DNA from: Candidatus Nealsonbacteria bacterium | GTDB lineage: Bacteria; Patescibacteriota; Minisyncoccia; Minisyncoccales; JANBVM01 | Direction of reading: 5' to 3' | Assembly: GCA_026016225.1 (NCBI GenBank) | Contig: CP061210.1 | Coordinates: forward strand, 593,131-657,130 | Length of the DNA: 64,000 bases | Shown here: positions 5,460 through 50,187 of the stretch, in pieces | Numbering within the stretch: position 1 is the stretch's first letter | How the letters are laid out: every line of letters starts with the position of its first letter | Notes under the pieces: model-generated | Database searches by the model: none | What the model was told of the DNA's origin: nothing | Seen by the model: the letters and a program-made list of their open reading frames with translations, nothing else | Translations under genes and position numbers: made by a program

Positions 5460-7529
5460 TTATTTCCTTACCTCCCATTCAGGATCTTTTTCTAAGACTT
5501 TAATTATTTTCTCTTGAATATCATCTATTTCTTTTGAAGTTAGTGTTCTGTCTTCTGCTTGATAAATTATATGAAAAGCCAAATTCTTTTTTCCCTCAGC
5601 TATTTCTTCTCCTTCGTAAATGTCAAAAAGGTCAACATCTTTAATCAGATTAAGACCAGTTCCCTCAATTTTATTTAAAACCTCCTCAACTAAAACATCT
5701 CTCGGAACCAAAACCGCTATATCTCTGACAGCAGATGGATAAGGAGAAATTGGTCTAAATTCCTGTTCTTCTGAAACAAGTTCTTGTAGTTTTTCAAAAT
5801 CAAAATCAAAAATCACTACTTTAGCGTTTAATTTTAAGGCCTCTGTAATTTTAGAAGAAATCTCTCCCAGAAAACCGACTTCCTCATTACCTATCTTAAT
5901 CTCAGCACGCCTTTTGGAATTCCAGACAAAAGCTTTTGATTCTTCTGGTGTTGGTTGATATTGGTCATACCAAATATCGCTTATTCCCAAATTATTCAAA
6001 AGCAAATCTATAACACCTTTTGCCTCATAAAATACCTCACCTGTCATTAAACCTGTGAGAGCTGTTTTTTCTTTATCTTTTTCATTTTTGAAAATCTTTC
6101 CCAGCTCAAAAATTCTAATATCATTGAAACTCGCCTGCCATCGCCTTGAGCTCAAGCGATTGGCGGGCAGGAACTTTTGATTCTCCTGAAAGCTTTTTAG
6201 AACTTTTGGAATCAAACTTGGCCTTAAATACTGAAAGTCAGCACTAATCGGATTCTCTGTCTCAATCAACTGAAAATTTCTATAACCGAATAATTTAGCT
6301 TCTTCCTTATTAATAAAAGAAGAGCTATAAATCTCAGTAAATTCTGCTTCCTTTAATATATTTTTTGTCATATCTTCCCAGAAAACATTAAGATTTCTTT
6401 CAGGCGGAATCAAAGCAGCTTTAGGAAAAACAGAAGGAATTTTCTCATAACCATAAATCCTTCCAATTTCCTCAATTAAATCCTCAGGAATTGAAACATC
6501 CAGTCTAAAACTAGGAATCTCTATCATAAGTTGATTGGTTGATGATTTGAGAAATTTAAAACCAAGTCGCTTTAGAATATTTTTTATTCTGCTTGTTGAA
6601 ATTCTAACTCCCAGCAAACTCTCGACATAATCTAAATCTAATTTAATTTTCTTTATTGAAACTTTTTTAGGGTAAAAATCAACCAATCCCTTACAGATTT
6701 TGCCTCCGGCAATCTTTCCAATCAAATAAGCTGCTCCATTTATTCCAAATTCGGTTAAATTCAAATCCAAACCATGTTCAAATCTCCATGAAGCATCTGT
6801 TTTCAAATCTATTTTTTTGGAACCCTTACGAACAACTCTTGGATTAAAATTAGCAGACTCTAACACAATAACTTTTGTTTTTTTTGTTATCTCGGCCTTT
6901 TTCCCGCCTTTTATCCCGGCAATTGCCAAAGGGTCTTTTACATCCGAAATAACTAAAATATCCTTATTTAATTTATATCTTTCATTGTCTAAAGTAATAA
7001 TTTTTTCTCCTTTTTTAGCTCTCCTGATAATTATCTTTTGGTCTAAAATTTTATCCAAATCAAAAGCGTGTAATGGCTGACCTGTTTCCAACATCACGTA
7101 ATTTGCAATATCAACCACATTATTAATCGGTTTTAAACCTAAAATCTTTAATCTGTCCCGAAGCCATTTTGGAGAAGGAGCTATCTTGACATCTGTAACA
7201 ACTCTGGCTGTATACCTTAAACAGTCTTTTTTGCTTTTAACTTTTAGTTCTATAAAATCCTTTGCTCTATATTTTCCCTCTTTTAAAGAATAGTCTTCAA
7301 ATCTTAATTTAGTATCTAAAACAGCAGAAATCTCTCGAGCAATACCTAAATGAGAAAAACAATCAGGTCCCCTATTGGGCAAAATATCAATATCTAAAAC
7401 CCAATCCTTTCCTATTTTTTCTACCTCTTCAACCTCAAAGCTGTGCATTGTTAAAACCTCTGCTAATTTATTGGCTTTTGGCAGTTTTTTCTTAAAAAAT
7501 GATTGTAACCAGTTATAAGAAAAAAGCAT
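5460..7529 (-). CDS. pheT: phenylalanine--tRNA ligase beta subunit
   Basis: N-terminus MLFSYNWLQSF, B3/4 and B5 regions, and a C-terminal anticodon-binding-like domain. It is adjacent to pheS. It is short at 689 aa and seems to lack the N-terminal OB tRNA-binding domain. Confidence 0.9.
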   Translation of the reverse strand: MLFSYNWLQSFFKKKLPKANKLAEVLTMHSFEVEEVEKIGKDWVLDIDILPNRGPDCFSHLGIAREISAVLDTKLRFEDYSLKEGKYRAKDFIELKVKSKKDCLRYTARVVTDVKIAPSPKWLRDRLKILGLKPINNVVDIANYVMLETGQPLHAFDLDKILDQKIIIRRAKKGEKIITLDNERYKLNKDILVISDVKDPLAIAGIKGGKKAEITKKTKVIVLESANFNPRVVRKGSKKIDLKTDASWRFEHGLDLNLTEFGINGAAYLIGKIAGGKICKGLVDFYPKKVSIKKIKLDLDYVESLLGVRISTSRIKNILKRLGFKFLKSSTNQLMIEIPSFRLDVSIPEDLIEEIGRIYGYEKIPSVFPKAALIPPERNLNVFWEDMTKNILKEAEFTEIYSSSFINKEEAKLFGYRNFQLIETENPISADFQYLRPSLIPKVLKSFQENQKFLPANRLSSRRWQASFNDIRIFELGKIFKNEKDKEKTALTGLMTGEVFYEAKGVIDLLLNNLGISDIWYDQYQPTPEESKAFVWNSKRRAEIKIGNEEVGFLGEISSKITEALKLNAKVVIFDFDFEKLQELVSEEQEFRPISPYPSAVRDIAVLVPRDVLVEEVLNKIEGTGLNLIKDVDLFDIYEGEEIAEGKKNLAFHIIYQAEDRTLTSKEIDDIQEKIIKVLEKDPEWEVRK

Positions 7530-7543
7530 AGTGATAAGATAAA

Positions 7544-8596
7544 TTAAAATTGATTTAAAAATCTGAGGTCGCCTCCATAAAACAACCTAATATCATTGAT
7601 TTTATATTTAAGCATAGCCATTCTATCCATACCCATACCAAAAGCAAAAGCCTGCCAGTTTTTAGGGCTTAAACCAGAATTCTTGAAAACATTAGGATGA
7701 ACCATCCCTCCCGGAAAAACCTCTAACCATCCACTCTGACCACAAGTACTGCAACCTTTCCCATTACATATTGCACACTGAACATCTACTTCAAAAGAAG
7801 GTTCTGTAAAGGGAAAATAACCCGGTCGAAGGCGAACTTTTAAATCTTTCTTAAAAAATTGTTTGAAAAATTTTTTTGCTATTGCTTTAAAATTAGCAAC
7901 AGAAATTGTTTTATCAACCATTAATCCTTCAACCTGGTAAAAATTAATCTCATGTCTGGCATCAGTTGCCTCGTGCCTAAATACCCTGCCAGGAACAATA
8001 ATTCTTAAAGGAGGCTGATTCTTTTCCATGTAACGAACCTGAACAGGAGAAGTTTGGGTTCTCATTAAAAACTTATTTCGAGAAGGAAGATTTTCTCTAT
8101 TCCTTTGCTTTATAAACAAAGTATCTTGCATATCTCGAGCTGGATGGTTTTTGGGAAAATTCAAAGCATCAAAGTTATACCACTCATTTTCAAGCTCAGG
8201 ACCCTCAATAATTGAAAAGCCCATTGACTGGAATATCTTTTCGATTTCTATTTTAGTCTGGGTCAAGGGGTGTAAATGACCAACAGCCGGCTTTTTCCCG
8301 GGGATTGTAATATCAAAAAACTCCTCTTTTTCTCTCCTTACACCTGCCTTTTCTTTAATTTTCAGGCTTTTTTTAACAATCTTCTCTTCTAAAACAGCTT
8401 TAAGCTTATTTGCTTCTTTCCCAACCTTTACTCTTTTTTTCTTTGGCATCTTTTTCAGAGAACGCAAAACCAGGGAAAGTTCACCTTTCTTTCCTAAATA
8501 TTGTTTATAAACATCGTTCAACTCAGTTAAATTTTGGCTCTTTTTTATCTCTTTTTCAGCCCTTTTTTCAATGTTTTTTAAGTTAATTTTTTTCAT
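7544..8596 (-). CDS. pheS: phenylalanine--tRNA ligase alpha subunit
   Basis: Class II motifs (HPARDMQDTLF, FRHEATDARH, GMGMDRMAML). Confidence 0.92.
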   Translation of the reverse strand: MKKINLKNIEKRAEKEIKKSQNLTELNDVYKQYLGKKGELSLVLRSLKKMPKKKRVKVGKEANKLKAVLEEKIVKKSLKIKEKAGVRREKEEFFDITIPGKKPAVGHLHPLTQTKIEIEKIFQSMGFSIIEGPELENEWYNFDALNFPKNHPARDMQDTLFIKQRNRENLPSRNKFLMRTQTSPVQVRYMEKNQPPLRIIVPGRVFRHEATDARHEINFYQVEGLMVDKTISVANFKAIAKKFFKQFFKKDLKVRLRPGYFPFTEPSFEVDVQCAICNGKGCSTCGQSGWLEVFPGGMVHPNVFKNSGLSPKNWQAFAFGMGMDRMAMLKYKINDIRLFYGGDLRFLNQF

Positions 8597-12396: not shown

Positions 12397-13687
12397 TCTT
12401 TTTTAAATTAGTAATTTCTATTAATTTTACTCTACTTTCATCTCTTCTTTTTAACTCAACAGAGTTTTTCCTTAACGTCTTTTCAGAAACAACAATCCTC
12501 ATTGGAATACCTATCAAATCACAATCTGCAAACTTTTCTCCTGCTGATTTATCTTTCCTATCATCATATAATATTTCAATATTTTGTTTTTGTCCACCTA
12601 TGCCGGAGGCTACGGCGGATCTACCGCAACTCCTCTTCTGAGAAGCAGAAACGGATAAATCCCTGTATATTTCATCTGCCTTTTTTCTTACATTTTTAGT
12701 ATTATCAAGAGAAATTAAATGAATCTGAAAAGGAGCTATTTCCTTTGGCCAAATAATTCCATTTTTATCGCTATTGACTTCAACCGAGGTTGCCATTAAT
12801 CTGGGAAGGCCAATTCCATAACACCCCATTAAAATAAATTTCTCTTTACCGTCTTTATCTTTATATTTAGCGTTCATATCCTTACTATACTTTGTCCCCA
12901 GATAGAAGATATGTCCTACTTCAATTGATTTTTTAGTCTCCAATGGACTTTTACATTGGGGACATTTTTTGTTTCTACCCATCACTTCAATATTTACTCC
13001 GTAATTACATTTTTTGCAAAGTAAAATCTTATCCTCGCCAATATTAGATATGACCATGAATTCATGAGAAAGCTTGCCGCCAATTGTACCAGAACTTGCT
13101 TCAACGCAAACTGTTTTTAACCCACACCTCTTAAAGATTTTAAAATAAGATTTTTTTATTTTTTCATAAAAATTGACCAAGTCTTTCTTATTAGAATGAA
13201 AACTATATAAATCCTTCATTATAAATTCTATTGTTCTTAAGAGTCCGCCGGTAGCCCGCATTTCATTACGGAATTTATTCTGAATCTGAAAGAGAAAGAA
13301 AGGTAAATCTTGGTAAGAACTAACTCTTTTTCGGACCATATCCACCATTTCCTCTTCATGGGTAGAACCCAAAGCTAATTCTTTATTGTGGCGGTCTTTC
13401 AATTTAAAAAGAGGTGGATCCATAGCATTCCAGCGTTTAGTTTCCTGCCAAAGATTCTTATTTTGAAAAGTTGACAAATATACTTCTTGAGCACCCAGCT
13501 CAAGCATTTCTTCCCGGATAATTTTTTCAATTTTTTTCAAAACTAAAAATCCTAAGGGTAAAAATCTATAAACTCCGCTAATTGATTGCTCAATAAAATC
13601 CCCTTTAATTAAATATTTATGACTAATAGCTATTGCAGTTCTTGCTATTTTCTTTTTAGTTTTTGTGAAAAGTTGGGATTGAAGCAT
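12377..13687 (-). CDS. proS: proline--tRNA ligase, bacterial-type but without the INS editing domain
   Basis: Start MLQSQLF... (ATG at 13687 is preferred over the track start at 13729, which overlaps rseP). Class II motifs and the MGCYGIG motif are present. A CKKC...CPQC knuckle sits where INS normally lies. A GC-rich insert of about 20 aa lies in the anticodon-binding domain. Confidence 0.88.
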   Translation of the reverse strand: MLQSQLFTKTKKKIARTAIAISHKYLIKGDFIEQSISGVYRFLPLGFLVLKKIEKIIREEMLELGAQEVYLSTFQNKNLWQETKRWNAMDPPLFKLKDRHNKELALGSTHEEEMVDMVRKRVSSYQDLPFFLFQIQNKFRNEMRATGGLLRTIEFIMKDLYSFHSNKKDLVNFYEKIKKSYFKIFKRCGLKTVCVEASSGTIGGKLSHEFMVISNIGEDKILLCKKCNYGVNIEVMGRNKKCPQCKSPLETKKSIEVGHIFYLGTKYSKDMNAKYKDKDGKEKFILMGCYGIGLPRLMATSVEVNSDKNGIIWPKEIAPFQIHLISLDNTKNVRKKADEIYRDLSVSASQKRSCGRSAVASGIGGQKQNIEILYDDRKDKSAGEKFADCDLIGIPMRIVVSEKTLRKNSVELKRRDESRVKLIEITNLKKNVEKNL

Positions 13688-15362: not shown

Positions 15363-16280
15363 TTAAAGCTTCATCATTAATATTTCTAAAGCTAATCTTG
15401 GGTTAATGTTCGTGGTTGAAATTACATAAATTGTTTCTTGAATAGCGTCGAGAATGTTTTTTATTTTTAATAAATTTGGTCTGTTTTTAGCAAAAAGTAA
15501 ATTCTTTCTGAAATAAAACAACCAAGCATCCAATGTTTCTTTCAGGTCTTCTTTTTGGGATAATTCTTTAACATATTGAAAACGTAAAGAAAGCGGAGAA
15601 TTTGAAATTTTTTCCAATTTTTTTATCTTTTTCTTTCTCTGTTCTAATTTCTCGGAGTTTTGCAAAAAATTAATAGCTTTTCCGGGTCTCCCTAATGAAA
15701 GTTCAACAATTTGTTTAATATCTTCCTTCGGAACTTTTTTTTGTTTCAAGTAAAGACTTATTTCTTCATTTTTCACGGAGTAAAACTTAACATTTTCACA
15801 CCTTGAAAGGATAGTAGGTAAAAGATAACCTGGATGCTCTGTAATTAAAATTAAAAGACTTTTAGTTTTTGGTTCTTCTAAGCTCTTTAAAAAACAGTTT
15901 TGGGCCTCCCGGGTCATTAAATGAGCTTTATCAACTATTACGCCTAAAAGAGGTGCTTTTATAGGTTTTAAGGATAATTTCCAATTAAGCTCTCTAATCT
16001 GAGCAATTTGAATCTGCTCACGCACCAGAGCAGACCTCGGAGCGGGGGTGTTGCGCCCAACCGAACTTTGTTCTGGTCTGGGATGTTTTGTTCTTGGGAC
16101 AATCAAAATAAAATCTGGATGACGAGACAGTTCTTCTTTAAAAAGAGAAGAAATTAGCTCTAAAGCTATTGTTCTTTTACCTAACTCTTCGGGTCCGGTA
16201 AACAGTAAAGCATGAGGAATTTTTCCTGAGCTAACTATTTTTTTTAAAAACTCTTGTTGTTTTTTATGGCCAATAATCAC
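15363..16280 (-). CDS. holB: DNA polymerase III delta-prime subunit
   Basis: HALLFTGPEELGKRT P-loop-like start, HPDF, and the SLEEP...ILSRC sensor region. It contains a GC-rich insert of about 20 aa. Confidence 0.7.
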   Translation of the reverse strand: MIIGHKKQQEFLKKIVSSGKIPHALLFTGPEELGKRTIALELISSLFKEELSRHPDFILIVPRTKHPRPEQSSVGRNTPAPRSALVREQIQIAQIRELNWKLSLKPIKAPLLGVIVDKAHLMTREAQNCFLKSLEEPKTKSLLILITEHPGYLLPTILSRCENVKFYSVKNEEISLYLKQKKVPKEDIKQIVELSLGRPGKAINFLQNSEKLEQRKKKIKKLEKISNSPLSLRFQYVKELSQKEDLKETLDAWLFYFRKNLLFAKNRPNLLKIKNILDAIQETIYVISTTNINPRLALEILMMKL

Positions 16281-17278: not shown

Positions 17279-17295
17279 AGTAGTGCTAATACATA

Positions 17296-17392
17296 ATCAG
17301 GTCGCTCGCCTTCGGCGAAAGCCTGTTTTCCTACATGGGGGAAACCTGAGAGTGGTGGACACTCACTCTCGCCCCCCCCCTCCGATATAGGA
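17296..17392 (-). promoter_or_regulatory. GC-rich structured leader upstream of mreB copy 2
   Basis: Minus strand reads ...UAUAUCGGAGGGGGGGGGCGAGAGUGAGUGUCCACCACUCUCAGGUUUCCCCC...CAGGCUUUCGCCGAAGGCGAGCGACCUG. Hairpins are GAGAGUG/CACUCUC and UCGCC-GAA-GGCGA. It shares a motif of about 35 nt with the rpsQ leader. Confidence 0.4.
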
Positions 17393-17505
17393 AAGTCTGT
17401 TTAAAAGATTATCTTTTTCCTCTTTAAAGATAACTTATCTTTTCAAATTTTGCAACTTTCAAAAAAAAAGAAGTCAAAAAATAGTCCTCTATAAGTTAAT
17501 GGCTC

Positions 17506-20119: not shown

Positions 20120-20695
20120 TTAGCGTTTCCTCCACTGCTTTGCTCTTCTGGCTCTTCTTAAACCAAACTTTTTTCTTTCTCTCATTCTTGAATCCCTTCT
20201 TAAAAAGCCAGCTTTTTTTAATCTTTTTCTAAAGTCGGGGTTAAAAAGAACAAGTACTCTGGCTATTCCATGACGAATAGCTTCTGCTTGACCGGAAATA
20301 CCTCCCCCTTTCACGATTACTGAAATCCTAAACTTATCTATGCACTTCATTTTTTCTAAAGAAGCTAAAGCAGTTTTTTGAAGCTCAAGAATAGGAAAAT
20401 ATTTTTCCAATGGCTTTTTGTTAACTAAAAATTCTTTCTCTCCTTTAGTCCAAATTCTCACCCTGGCTACCGATGTCTTTCTTCTCCCTTGAGATTCATA
20501 ATATTTATCAGGTTTACTAACCTTTTTTTCCGCCAGCTGGCGGATTTCTTTTCTTCTCTTGTCCTCCACATCCTTGACTACGGAGGGTTTCTCTACTTTC
20601 TTCTTTTTCTTTTCTTTCTTAGGAGCTTTAGGTTTTTTCTTGGTTTTTGTTTTAGTTTTTGTTTTAGTTTTTGTTTCTGTTTTAGCTTTTACCAT
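20120..20695 (-). CDS. rpsI: 30S ribosomal protein S9 with Lys-rich N-terminal extension of about 65 aa
   Basis: S9 core GRRKTSVARVRI...GGGISGQAEAIRHGIARVL...RRAKQWRKR. The N-terminus contains (KT)6 encoded by a hexanucleotide tandem repeat. Confidence 0.92.
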   Translation of the reverse strand: MVKAKTETKTKTKTKTKTKKKPKAPKKEKKKKKVEKPSVVKDVEDKRRKEIRQLAEKKVSKPDKYYESQGRRKTSVARVRIWTKGEKEFLVNKKPLEKYFPILELQKTALASLEKMKCIDKFRISVIVKGGGISGQAEAIRHGIARVLVLFNPDFRKRLKKAGFLRRDSRMRERKKFGLRRARRAKQWRKR

Positions 20696-28433: not shown

Positions 28434-29156
28434 TCAATAGTTACTTTTAGATAATAGTTTAACTATCTTAATAAATTCTTTTGGTTTTAAAGAAGCTCCT
28501 CCAATTAAAAGACCTTGAAATTTGGATTCTTTAATATAACCTAAGGCATTTTGAGAATTAACACTGCCACCGTATAAAACAGGATGTTTCTTTCCTAAAA
28601 CCTTTTTAATTGAAAGATTGAATCTTTTGGCCTGGGAAAAACTACAGGCTTTTCCAGTTCCAATCGCCCATATTGGTTCGTAAGCCACAATTATCTTTTT
28701 AATTTGGCTTTTTAAAATTCCCTTAATACCTCTTTTAATTTGAGAAATCTCATCAATGCATAAAATAGGTCTTAAATTTTGTTTAAGGACTGCTTTTAGC
28801 TTCTTATTAATTTCTGCGTCTTTTTCTAAGAAATGACTTCGTCTTTCAGAATGACCAATAATTACGTATTTACAACCCAAATCCGTAAGCATCAAAGGAG
28901 ATATCTCTCCTGTAAAAGCGCCTCTTTCTTCCCGGAAACAATTCTGTGAGCCGAAGGCGAGTCCTCCGTAGCTCGCCCTGCGGCGAGCGGAGGAGGGAGC
29001 TCCCAATAAAGATAGATAAACAAAAGGTGGACAAATTACTACTTCTGCATTTTTGACATCTTCAATCCCTCTTCTTATTGAATTGAAAAGATTACTTGCT
29101 TTTTTTAAGCTTGTTGGATTACATTTCCAATTACCTATAATGAAAATTTTATCCAT
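28434..29156 (-). CDS. tpiA: triosephosphate isomerase
   Basis: GNWKCN, GHSERR, AYEPIWAIGTG and GGASLK motifs. It contains a GC-rich palindromic patch at 28947-29003. Confidence 0.88.
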   Translation of the reverse strand: MDKIFIIGNWKCNPTSLKKASNLFNSIRRGIEDVKNAEVVICPPFVYLSLLGAPSSARRRASYGGLAFGSQNCFREERGAFTGEISPLMLTDLGCKYVIIGHSERRSHFLEKDAEINKKLKAVLKQNLRPILCIDEISQIKRGIKGILKSQIKKIIVAYEPIWAIGTGKACSFSQAKRFNLSIKKVLGKKHPVLYGGSVNSQNALGYIKESKFQGLLIGGASLKPKEFIKIVKLLSKSNY

Positions 29157-30952: not shown

Positions 30953-31054
30953 TTTTTCATTTTATCACAATTTCAAAATAAATAAAAAAGAGGCCTCAGC
31001 CTCAGAAAAGATTGAAAAGAACTTTTAGAAAAGACACTTCACTCGAGATATGTC

Positions 31055-31378
31055 TCATATTATGAATATAAAACCGCACTTACAAGCTTTAACAAAAGGA
31101 ACTAAAGTCTTTTTTTCTTCACCAGATAAAAGTCTAAGAGCTACAATATGTATTTTTTTGCTTCTGTTCCTGCAAAAATTGTGATGAATCTCCATCCACG
31201 TCATCTCCCCCACTCTCTGTTTTTCTTCTGGTTTTAACTGTTGAAGAAAATTTTTAAAATATTTCTTCTTAGTCTCAGCAATTTCAGAATCTAAGTCTTT
31301 AAAAGAACTCTCGAACTTCTTCATTAGCTGATCTATTTCCAAATCTTTTTCCTCCATTACTTCTGTAATTTCTGGCAT
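31055..31378 (-). CDS. hypothetical protein
   Basis: 107-aa ORF followed by the hairpin GAGGC-cuca-GCCUC plus a U-run at about 30995-31015. I recognise no family. Confidence 0.35.
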   Translation of the reverse strand: MPEITEVMEEKDLEIDQLMKKFESSFKDLDSEIAETKKKYFKNFLQQLKPEEKQRVGEMTWMEIHHNFCRNRSKKIHIVALRLLSGEEKKTLVPFVKACKCGFIFII

Positions 31379-31407
31379 TTCATTCCACCAACTTTCATTA
31401 TATCTTA

Positions 31408-48982: not shown

Positions 48983-49057
48983 CGGGCTGTAGCGCAGTTT
49001 AGTTAGCGCGCTCGCATGGGGCGCGAGAGGCCGCCGGGGCAGAGCCGGCCAGCCCGA
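48983..49057 (+). tRNA. tRNA-Pro (anticodon GGG) with non-canonical T- and D-loops
   Basis: CGGGCTG TA GCGC AGTTTAGTTA GCGC G CTCGC ATGGGGC GCGAG AGGCC GCCGG GGCAGAG CCGGC CAGCCCG A. All four stems are perfect and G37 is present. The T-loop is GGCAGAG rather than TTCRANY, and the D-loop lacks GG. Confidence 0.6.
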
Positions 49058-49088
49058 CACTTTTATTTAGAGACGCTAAAAAATGAAC

Positions 49089-49171
49089 TACCCCGCCCTA
49101 AAGGGACGGGGTATCCCTTCCGCCAACTGGCGGAGGGGCAAGTTCTTTTGCCCCGCCTGGGCGGGGCAAAA
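49089..49171. repeat. cluster of three GC-rich hairpins between tRNA-Pro and the nuclease-like gene
   Basis: TACCCCGCCC-taaa-GGGaCGGGGTA at 49089-49113. CCTTCCGCC-aact-GGCGGAGGG at 49115-49138. TTTTGCCCCGC-ctgg-GCGGGGCAAAA at 49146-49171. None is followed by a T-run. Confidence 0.8.
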
Positions 49172-49179
49172 TAAAATCT

Positions 49180-50037
49180 ATGAGTAAAGTTATTGTTAAG
49201 TGCTCTTATTGTAAAACGGAATTCCAGCGAGAATTGGGAAGATACAACGAAGCAATAAAGAAAAGTTGGAATCAGTATTGCTCTCAAGAATGTCAAAATA
49301 AGTCTAAGATTAAAAGAGTAGAAAAAATTTGCGGTAATCCAAAATGTAACAAGAGGGTGTCTCGTAAATTCCACGAATTTAAAAAATCAAAATCAGGCAG
49401 CATCTTTTGTTCTCTTTCTTGTGCCGTGTCGGTCAACAATTCTAAATTTCCAAAAAGACAGGCAATAAAAAGAAAATGTCTCTATTGTGAAAAAGATTTT
49501 GTCGGCGGAAAGAAATATTGCTCGATAAAATGCAAAAATAAAGCCCAAATTATAAGCAAAGAAGAAATCTGTGATAAAATTAAAGGGTTCTATAAAAAAT
49601 ATAGAAGGATTCCTGTCAAAAAAGAGTTCTCTCATTATAATGCTGCTCGAGATCGGTTCGGTTCTTGGAATAAAGCAATAGAATCAGCAGGCTTCGTACC
49701 TAATCCAGTAGTATTTGCAAGAAAGCACAAAGCAGAAGATGGACATGTGTGCGATTCTCTATCGGAAAAAATTGTTGATGATTGGCTTTCTAAAAACAAC
49801 TTAAAGCACAAAATTAATGTTGCCTATCCAGGGAATCCCCGTCTAACATGTGATTTTTTAGTAGGTAACTATTTTATAGAATTTTTCGGAATTGGAAAAG
49901 AACACGTACGATACACAGAACTAATGAAAGAAAAAAGGCGATTGGCTCAACAGTATAACCTTAATATGGTAGAACTAAAGCCTGAACACATTTTTCCTAA
50001 AAATAAGTTAGACGCTGTATTAAATTTTCTTCTATAA
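49180..50037 (+). CDS. multi-Zn-ribbon protein with homing-endonuclease-associated repeat and C-terminal PD-(D/E)XK/Vsr-like nuclease-like domain
   Basis: Three CxxC...(F/Y)CSxxC modules are followed by FYKKYRRIPVKKEFSHYNAARDRFGSWNKAIESAGF, an HNH-associated-repeat-like pattern. The C-terminus is CDSLSEKIVDDWL...TCDFLVGNYFIEFFG, like small DUF559/Vsr-type nuclease folds. The family assignment is pattern-based only. Confidence 0.45.
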   Translation: MSKVIVKCSYCKTEFQRELGRYNEAIKKSWNQYCSQECQNKSKIKRVEKICGNPKCNKRVSRKFHEFKKSKSGSIFCSLSCAVSVNNSKFPKRQAIKRKCLYCEKDFVGGKKYCSIKCKNKAQIISKEEICDKIKGFYKKYRRIPVKKEFSHYNAARDRFGSWNKAIESAGFVPNPVVFARKHKAEDGHVCDSLSEKIVDDWLSKNNLKHKINVAYPGNPRLTCDFLVGNYFIEFFGIGKEHVRYTELMKEKRRLAQQYNLNMVELKPEHIFPKNKLDAVLNFLL

Positions 50038-50105
50038 AAACAACTAAGATTAATTACAGAGATAGAAATTCTCGGGTATTCTAAACTTAGCGCGAACCTA
50101 TTTTC

Positions 50106-50155
50106 AGCGAAACGCCTAACCGCCGTTTCGCTTTGCCCGCGCGAAGCGCGGGCAA
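50106..50155. repeat. two adjacent perfect GC-rich hairpins downstream of the nuclease-like gene
   Basis: AGCGAAACG-cctaaccgc-CGTTTCGCT at 50106-50132. TTGCCCGCGC-gaa-GCGCGGGCAA at 50133-50155. Confidence 0.8.
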
Positions 50156-50187
50156 GGAAAAGAAAGTTTTTCAAAAATCTTTATTGG

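Follow-up and report, generated by a model that had tools for sequence, protein, structure and literature searches.

A GC-rich palindrome within tpiA of a Candidatus Nealsonbacteria bacterium as the probable copy of a dispersed, in-frame repeat family

Background

Several kinds of short palindromic repeats have been described with which a GC-rich hairpin inside a bacterial gene can be compared. Repetitive extragenic palindromes (REPs) and REPINs are imperfect GC-rich hairpins with a GTAG/CTAC head, which are extragenic by definition and are mobilised by RAYTs, a group of Y1 transposases. Rickettsia palindromic elements (RPEs) are dispersed palindromic repeats that insert in frame into housekeeping genes (PMC10969869). 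The GC clusters of yeast mitochondria, for example GC42, show constraint on their stems, a sporadic distribution among strains, merging of units, exchange by recombination and co-conversion tracts (PMC4478555). Here we analyze a stretch of 64,000 nucleotides (the window) from the genome of a Candidatus Nealsonbacteria bacterium (contig CP061210.1, positions 593,131 to 657,130), in which the gene tpiA carries a very GC-rich patch of 57 nt (28947..29003, minus strand; positions are those of the window). The first-pass annotation of the window had suggested that the patch might reflect an RPE-like event. In our reading, to which we assign a probability of around 0.75, the patch belongs to a family of very short, GC-rich palindromes that are dispersed as repeats inside the genes of ultra-small Nealsonbacteria-type bacteria of the Candidate Phyla Radiation (CPR), are selfish or neutral, and have been spread by recombination. 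Full-text searches, the coverage of which was incomplete, retrieved no description of such elements in Patescibacteria, and the family is apparently undescribed.

The GC-rich patch of tpiA

The host gene (28434..29156, minus strand) is an open reading frame (ORF) of 240 amino acids that matches the Pfam TIM family with an E-value of 4.5e-70, and its product shares 98% identity with a TpiA of Candidatus Nealsonbacteria. The patch is positioned and composed as originally reported: it lies in frame and encodes the peptide GAPSSARRRASYGGLAFGS, flanked by PPFVY and GSQN, and consists of the codons GGA GCT, followed by a hairpin core and a tail. The GC content of the window is 0.334 overall, and the patch peaks at 0.75 in windows of 40 nt, against a 99.9th percentile of 0.70 for the window; it is the coding stretch with the highest GC content, and a value of 0.75 is reached in no other coding region. 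The GC content at third codon positions (GC3) is 0.68 in the 19 codons of the patch and 0.20 in the remainder of tpiA. Compared with an average draw from the codon usage of the genome, the synonymous choices made in the patch have a probability that is lower by a factor of around 10^6 (log10 of -16.0 versus -9.9); they include the rare codons CGC, CTC and GCG, which account for 2.8% of the Arg, 3.5% of the Leu and 4.5% of the Ala codons, respectively. The nested inverted repeats that had been pointed out earlier are also borne out: TCCTCCG pairs with CGGAGGA at 7/7 positions and encloses GCTCGCC-CTGC-GGCGAGC, and the patch folds with an energy of -29.4 kcal/mol (z=-2.2) as RNA and with a z of -2.1 as DNA.

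On basis of its inverted repeats, its match to the covariance model R1 that is described below and the predicted local distance difference test (pLDDT) scores of the encoded residues, the element core can be delimited as a long form of 36 nt (28962..28997, minus strand) that encodes APSSARRRASYG. It comprises an outer stem, a 3x3 internal loop or bulge, an inner stem of 7 bp (28971-28977 with 28982-28988) and a tetraloop (28978-28981). The core is accompanied by a recoded tail (CTCGCCTTCGGCTCA; 28947..28961, minus strand), which encodes the LAFGS of strand beta-3. At 9 of 12 positions the tail agrees with the 5' half of the element (TCCGCCTTCGCC), of which it seems to be a partial copy, so that the tpiA site probably accommodates one and a half units. 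The nucleotide sequence of the tail is conserved in nearly all tpiA alleles with a patch, and AT-type codons are found at its place in the empty alleles.

Compared with the closest empty class (L122, LSKLS-GLTLGAQNC), the core represents a clean insertion of 12 codons, or of 9 codons in a short form. The empty site reads TCT GGT TTG ACA TTG GGA GCT CAA and the filled site GGA-[core]-GGA CTC GCC NTC GGC TCG CAA, with the 18 nt 3' of the core recoded at unchanged length (GGT TTG ACA TTG GGA GCT to GGA CTC GCC TTC GGC TCA, or GLTLGA to GLAFGS). It had been cautioned in the first-pass annotation that the region is only a few residues longer than in the TpiA of E. coli and B. subtilis and that a simple insertion would require a compensating deletion. 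The former is correct, as the region is six residues longer than in the TIM of T. maritima according to our alignment, but the latter is unneeded given the clean 12-codon insertion and the constant length of the recoded tail.

The patch was mapped onto a structure, as had been suggested. In the AlphaFold model of TpiA (mean pLDDT 82) the pLDDT drops below 50 exactly at residues 53-64, which correspond to APSSARRRASYG, and this stretch is flanked by a helix (residues 45-51) and an intact strand (residues 66-71; LAFGSQ). According to the model, the 12 core residues would bulge out between helix 2 and strand 3 as a loop of low confidence. In a TIM barrel the loop that connects these two elements faces away from the active site, which would place the insert on the opposite face of the protein.

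Filled, empty and decayed alleles of tpiA

To make an inventory of the alleles, 120 TpiA homologues were parsed together with the window sequence. A 21-amino acid form of the region (GASSFARRKASYGGLAF-GSQN type) was found in 14 proteins and an 18-amino acid form (GASAFAKGYGGLAF-GSQN) in nine, seven looked like decayed versions, and 88 possessed short AT-type segments, such as LSKLSGLTL-GAQNC and LKSQVSNLKL-GAQDC. Partly decayed copies are those of L091, L099/L101 and the P0016 type. In the comparison with orthologues that had been proposed, the patch is present in some close relatives and absent from others. In a neighbour-joining tree of the 121 TpiA sequences, constructed with the region masked, the 24 carriers require 16 changes of state, compared to a mean of 21.3 and a minimum of 17 for shuffled labels. 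On this tree, which is crude, the carriers appear scattered, with hardly fewer changes than expected for shuffled labels. Synteny is kept even in distant carriers, where tpiA resides between the spc-type and alpha-type clusters of ribosomal-protein genes.

The nucleotide architecture of the insert could be derived from at least 30 tpiA loci. The outer stem is formed by TCC[GAT]CC and GG[CTA]GGA and the 3x3 internal loop by TYC opposite TWC, while the inner stem has either 3 bp closed by a loop AAA (short form) or 7 bp closed by a tetraloop GCAG, GAAA, GTAA or AAAA (long form). The conserved tail reads GGA CTC GCC TTC GGC TCG. Within the stems compensatory changes are found, including GCT..AGC to GCC..GGC, which comes at the cost of a Ser-to-Gly replacement, the pair GCCCGT/ACGGGC, and a change from GCC/GGC to GCT/AGC in the short form. 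In the alignment of the long forms 87% of the cells are paired, versus 35-46% in slid controls, and five pairs are altered on both sides. The stems are kept by paired substitutions and the constraint acts on the nucleotides.

A dispersed family of palindromes in housekeeping genes

Further copies were searched for by local BLAST and pattern scans of fetched CPR loci, the sequence examined being the 64-kb window and around 0.6 Mb of related loci. The copies recovered share a 27-nt consensus, TCCGCC-TTC-GCC-AAA-GGC-TAC-GGCGGA, and occur as the basic unit of 27 nt, as a form of 36 nt with a longer inner stem, as a shorter form of 15 nt and as doublets of a forward and a reverse unit. For 21 ungapped 27-nt copies the mean column identity is 89%, and 94.7% of the cells are paired, as compared to 21-54% in slid controls. 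In related CPR genomes, in-frame copies are present in eight or more housekeeping genes that are unrelated to each other, including tpiA, proS, pheT, alaS, map, mnmA, a GT2 glycosyltransferase gene and an RNaseH-like gene, and they support the RPE-like event that had been put forward. All intragenic copies lack stop codons, and both orientations and more than one reading frame are used. More explicitly, a 27-nt unit is present in frame in the GT2 gene (L097) and in alaS (L094), two units are arranged head to head, in frame, in the RNaseH-like gene (L086, L087 and L097), two to three copies occur in frame in mnmA (L113), and in map (L110) a 27-nt unit is read through in another frame. The second copy of the window is part of a 63-nt in-frame insertion in proS (SVSASQKRSCGRSAVASGIGG; 12593..12655, minus strand), of which the last 27 nt (12593-12619) constitute a family copy that is reversed with respect to the gene and matched by R1 on the plus strand.

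Model R1 was built from 21 short-form copies, including the proS copy and excluding the tpiA copy of the window; its E-values are rough. The top two matches within the window were the proS copy (34.4 bits, E=1.6e-6) and the tpiA patch (28962-28998; 17.7 bits, E=0.035). Other long forms of tpiA, all absent from the training set, were recovered at E=3e-4 to 2e-3. Two more untrained findings came from L124, where R1 detected a forward and reverse doublet in pheT (6372-6425; E=1e-8 and 2e-5) and an intergenic copy of the long form that directly adjoins the gene for tRNA-Asp at its 3' end (E=4e-5). In 1.28 Mb of sequence, made up of 80 mostly non-CPR loci with distant tpiA genes, R1 found nothing better than E=0.49. 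A loose regular-expression scan for copies with a variable apex yielded 108 matches in the non-CPR loci, which are mostly due to chance, and such a scan is informative only after a fold-energy filter.

A hairpin of the same design, TCCGCC-TTC-GCC-AA(G)-GGC-TTC-GGCGGA, occurs in multiple copies in prophage-like IMG/VR contigs of around 68% GC (R1 E-values of 2e-9 to 4e-3), with six copies in L119 (1426-10999), three in L121 and one in L120. These copies are often located directly after a TGA stop codon and followed by CAAG, and the one in L120 adjoins a lambda-like portal gene. A BLAST of the high-GC variant against plasmids gave weak partial matches only and nothing comparable.

Reduced versions, which consist of only the outer stem and a loop of 3-4 nt, were encountered as well. 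The 15-nt form is present in L112 both at the tpiA site (7444-7458; VASARGGLAFGSQ) and at 2975-2989; its presence at the tpiA site suggests that such forms are apex deletions of full copies. In the window, a mini-hairpin TCCGCC-AGCT-GGCGGA is found at 20529-20544, in the 5' extension of an rpsI-like ORF (20120..20695).

Empty sites and the borders of recombination tracts

Clean pairs of filled and empty sites, which differ by insertions of 27 or 54 nt at orthologous positions, were identified for the GT2 gene, alaS, the RNaseH-like gene and map. For proS, nearly all of the 109 orthologues of ProS are empty at the site occupied in the window, including P0123 with 80% identity. In the same insertion loop, the homologue P0185 from another lineage has a tandemly duplicated insert of 13 amino acids (VDELRLSSLFANARV), and P0141 has yet another insert. 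This loop seems to be either a hotspot for insertions or just a place where they are tolerated.

The comparison of tpiA alleles provides two informative pairs. L115, which is filled, and L116, which is empty, share 88-98% identity outside the patch. Between L098 (filled) and L122 (empty) the identity amounts to 90-97% over 5 kb and is interrupted by a divergent tract of around 200 nt that stops at the 3' edge of the patch. A similar situation exists in pheT (5460..7529) of the window, which harbors an in-frame GC-rich palindrome of 42 nt (LPANRLSSRRWQAS; 6129-6170, minus strand) that folds at -20 to -24 kcal/mol and differs in sequence from the tpiA family. This palindrome is without a counterpart in 67 of 69 orthologues, including the 92% identical PheT of the sister genome CP179891.1, which is 99.1% identical to the window over 20 kb. 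On the 3' side of the pheT palindrome the two genomes are 100% identical for more than 600 nt, and the 5' side is a mosaic with 52-98% identity. In the pheT of L124, the doublet of the tpiA-type family occupies the very site of the 42-nt palindrome. The borders of the recombination tracts in tpiA and pheT coincide with the edges of the elements in these cases, which amount to three pairs only, and the substitutions within the tracts are ordinary synonymous-type changes. A diversity-generating retroelement, with a GC-rich hairpin and GAAA loop that bounds one-sided tracts, was considered and rejected, since the tract substitutions represent ordinary synonymous divergence and are not adenine-specific.

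A segment of 359 nt between map and the GT2 gene of the window (~31040-31400), which holds an ORF of 107 amino acids (31055-31378, minus strand) that has no match in Pfam, is absent from CP179891.1. In the latter genome, a gene for a LAGLIDADG_3 homing endonuclease adjoins the pheST operon (L123, 1-673), upstream of pheS.

Other GC-rich hairpins

The first-pass annotation had drawn attention to a 12-mer, CTCGCCTTCGGC, that the patch would share with the leader of a gene designated mreB-2. The word indeed occurs twice in the window, at 28950-28961 (minus strand) and at 17305-17316 (plus strand), where shuffled sequences give an expectation of 0.04 matches. The second occurrence lies within a GC-rich intergenic hairpin of uncertain kinship with the family. 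At E<=10 this leader hairpin is not among the matches of R1, and the model does not recognize it as a family copy. The hairpin is contained in a strongly structured GC-rich region between divergent genes (17285-17405), which folds at -50 kcal/mol on the minus strand. An 8-mer, CGCCTTCG, at 7827 was discarded as a chance match within a conserved pheS motif.

A further in-frame GC-rich stretch (PEQSSVGRNTPAPRSALVREQ; ~16004-16075, minus strand), with two hairpins, is present in a holB-like gene (15363..16280), at a place where canonical delta-prime proteins of DNA polymerase III presumably have only few residues. Neither this stretch nor the 42-nt palindrome of pheT had relatives in 1.8 Mb of local sequence. 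In L086, the rplX gene (L24) contains a GC-rich hairpin insert (CCGCCCACAAAGTGGGCGAGCCTCGCCTAAGTGGGCGG; 1622-1659), and the protein counts 143 amino acids versus 101 in its relatives (42 longer).

A dense cluster of intergenic GC-rich hairpins was observed in the window at 48983-49171 (plus strand; fold of -99 kcal/mol). Its first 75 nt are tRNA-like, with an anticodon-loop-like AUGGGGC and an odd T-loop, and obtained no call from ARAGORN or Rfam. The cluster includes a mini-hairpin with the outer stem of the family, TCCGCC-AACT-GGCGGA, and is located directly 5' of an ORF (49180-50037, plus strand) with the HNH_repeat domain that is associated with homing endonucleases. Finally, two adjacent perfect GC-rich hairpins, CAGCGAAACG…CGTTTCGCTT and TGCCCGCGC-GAA-GCGCGGGCA, are found in the intergenic region 50104-50162.

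Origin and nature of the tpiA insert

The reading of the patch as a copy of a dispersed repeat can be phrased as follows. As the units are multiples of three and GC-rich, nearly every reading frame through them is open, and a copy that ended up in a tolerant surface loop would simply be translated. From there, the tpiA copy may pass between alleles by homologous recombination or gene conversion following the uptake of DNA; the patchy phylogeny of the cassette, which is always accompanied by the same flanks and tail, fits homologous recombination over short tracts better than repeated independent insertion. New sites could be colonized through an activity that recognizes the hairpin. The obvious model for such an activity would be a single-strand transposase of the REP/RAYT type, considering that a small imperfect hairpin, inverted doublets and the lack of a target duplication resemble the REPs/REPINs that are moved by Y1 transposases. 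We infer that the element is selfish or neutral DNA and not a regulator, given its many hosts, its occurrence in both orientations and several frames, the apparent well-being of the empty relatives and the existence of decayed copies.

Several observations weigh against this reading. The clean filled/empty pairs show neither a target-site duplication nor a conserved target sequence, and a scan of 30 less obvious ORFs of the window revealed no transposase, reverse transcriptase or RAYT-like gene. The same flanks and tail are found in all tpiA carriers, which means that recombination between alleles alone explains the patchy distribution and that transposition is not proven. The number of clear family copies in the 64-kb window is only two, and of these the tpiA copy has a marginal R1 score (E=0.035). 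In addition, the hairpin has been retained by paired changes in old orthologous copies of tpiA; pure junk should decay, and selection for a local function could be involved.

A more far-reaching version of this reading would make the palindromes a new class of in-frame mobile elements of 27-54 nt that colonize essential genes of CPR bacteria and propagate by one-sided gene conversion bounded by the hairpin, in a homing-like manner or via cDNA. The hairpin design (TCCGCC/GGCGGA stem, TTC/TWC loop) that is common to these elements and the high-GC prophage-like repeats would then imply a cross-phylum element or vector. We regard this version as tentative and, on balance, rather doubtful.

The main rival explanation holds that the hairpin is a functional cis-acting structure of RNA or DNA that was selected in place and tunes the expression of tpiA, for instance by stabilizing the mRNA, by binding a protein or by acting as a site of processing or pausing. 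The paired substitutions speak for it, as they keep the hairpin across TpiA lineages that are 52-74% identical, even where amino acids change, and so do the conserved synteny, with tpiA inside a long cluster of ribosomal-protein genes, and the loops, which are often GNRA-like (GAAA, GTAA). The intergenic copy directly 3' of a tRNA gene and the high-GC contig copies right after stop codons, in the manner of REP-type stabilizers, can be added to this list. Nevertheless, a structure tuned to tpiA is hard to reconcile with a unit that appears in both orientations and different frames in at least eight unrelated genes, with the many close relatives that lack the hairpin without a visible replacement, and with the persistence of partly decayed copies. 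Moreover, no Rfam family was matched: at the gathering score only tRNAs were reported for the window, and the best permissive match around the patch (E=0.11) was located elsewhere. Altogether, we consider a cis-acting function improbable. A related proposal, an internal Shine-Dalgarno sequence (GGAGGA) sequestered by the hairpin, was rejected because most family members have GGCGGA.

Two explanations are contradicted by the observations and very unlikely. According to the first, the core is a programmed translational bypass element with take-off at the GGA codon of Gly52 and landing at the matching GGA 36 nt downstream, by which the short canonical protein would be restored. GGA codons are indeed present on both sides of the 36-nt hairpin, and removal of the 12 codons gives LSLLG-GLAFGSQNC, equal in length to the empty form LSKLSGLTLGAQNC. 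However, the tpiA variants, which number around 25, are all in frame, lack stops and differ in length by multiples of three only, as do all of the copies in other genes, and the copies in the GT2 gene, alaS and map have no matching flanking codons. The second, which has a similarly slight chance of being correct, takes the insert for an ordinary lineage-specific loop under selection at the protein level, with the GC-richness and palindromy as by-products of a peptide rich in Gly, Ala, Ser and Arg. Around 20% of the orthologues among the matches listed have a related peptide at this position, but the synonymous choices are strongly skewed to rare GC-ending codons, nucleotide homologues in unrelated proteins are reversed or read in other frames and encode different peptides, and the AlphaFold model has no confidence in the loop.

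An assembly chimera or contaminating GC-rich fragment, which the sudden jump in composition at the patch might suggest, has next to no likelihood and is excluded as far as assemblies can show, because the patch is base-for-base identical in the closed genome CP179891.1 (L081; 694,748 bp) and in an independent Logan assembly from another run (L082), patches homologous to it are present in over 25 tpiA genes that derive from many metagenomes, and the reading frame of tpiA is unbroken across it.

Significance and comparison with known systems

The bacteria of the CPR/Patescibacteria serve as models of extreme genome streamlining, and the selfish-looking palindromes in tpiA, in genes for aminoacyl-tRNA synthetases and in map show that repeat DNA is carried and exchanged in such genomes. 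Because the borders of recombination tracts sit at their edges, the elements are ready markers of recombination between uncultivated lineages. They would also supply conserved enzymes with new surface loops. For phylogenetics and for the quality control of metagenome-assembled genomes they are a trap, as they look like chimeras and create shared 'motifs', for instance SAFAKGYGG, in unrelated proteins. The enzyme or process that moves them, if identified, may represent a new hairpin-directed recombination activity.

With the RPEs the elements have in common that they are multi-copy palindromes in a small AT-rich genome, which lie in frame in unrelated housekeeping genes and which, like the RPEs that give rise to extra surface peptides, would be translated along with their host genes, that their presence varies between relatives, and that no transposase is known for either. 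They differ in that RPEs (families 1-10) measure ~100-150 bp, compared to 27-36 nt here (54 nt for doublets), in that the host belongs to another phylum, and in that the units found here are far richer in GC than the host genome. The tpiA-type family is not part of the RPE families, from which it is set apart, going by their description, by its length and host.

The likeness to REPs and REPINs concerns the structure: imperfect GC-rich palindromes of 20-40 nt, occurring as singletons and inverted doublets, without target-site duplication. The hairpins of the same design in the high-GC contigs even share with REPs the position just after stop codons. In contrast to REPs, most of the CPR copies reside within coding sequences, in frame, with one intergenic copy after tRNA-Asp. 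A conserved GTAG/CTAC head outside the stem is not evident, and CTAC is found in the 3' internal loop (GGCTACGG) of most copies and CTTC in others. From miniature inverted-repeat transposable elements the family differs by the lack of a target-site duplication at the clean filled/empty pairs.

An insertion of GC-rich hairpins into coding sequences is also typical of the byps of Magnusiomyces mitochondria and of T4 gene 60, which the tpiA copy with its matching GGA codons resembles. However, byps break the frame or carry stops and must be skipped, whereas the copies described here are always open. The GC clusters of yeast mitochondria come close in other respects, since they too are short GC-rich palindromes in an AT-rich genome that are distributed sporadically among close relatives, and the tract borders in tpiA and pheT are comparable to theirs. 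GC clusters are, on the other hand, organellar and mostly intergenic, with a short AG target-site duplication reported, whereas the elements of the CPR family are bacterial and mostly intragenic. By analogy, then, the element may be described as one that behaves like an RPE, is built like a REP/REPIN and resembles the yeast GC clusters in its population behaviour.

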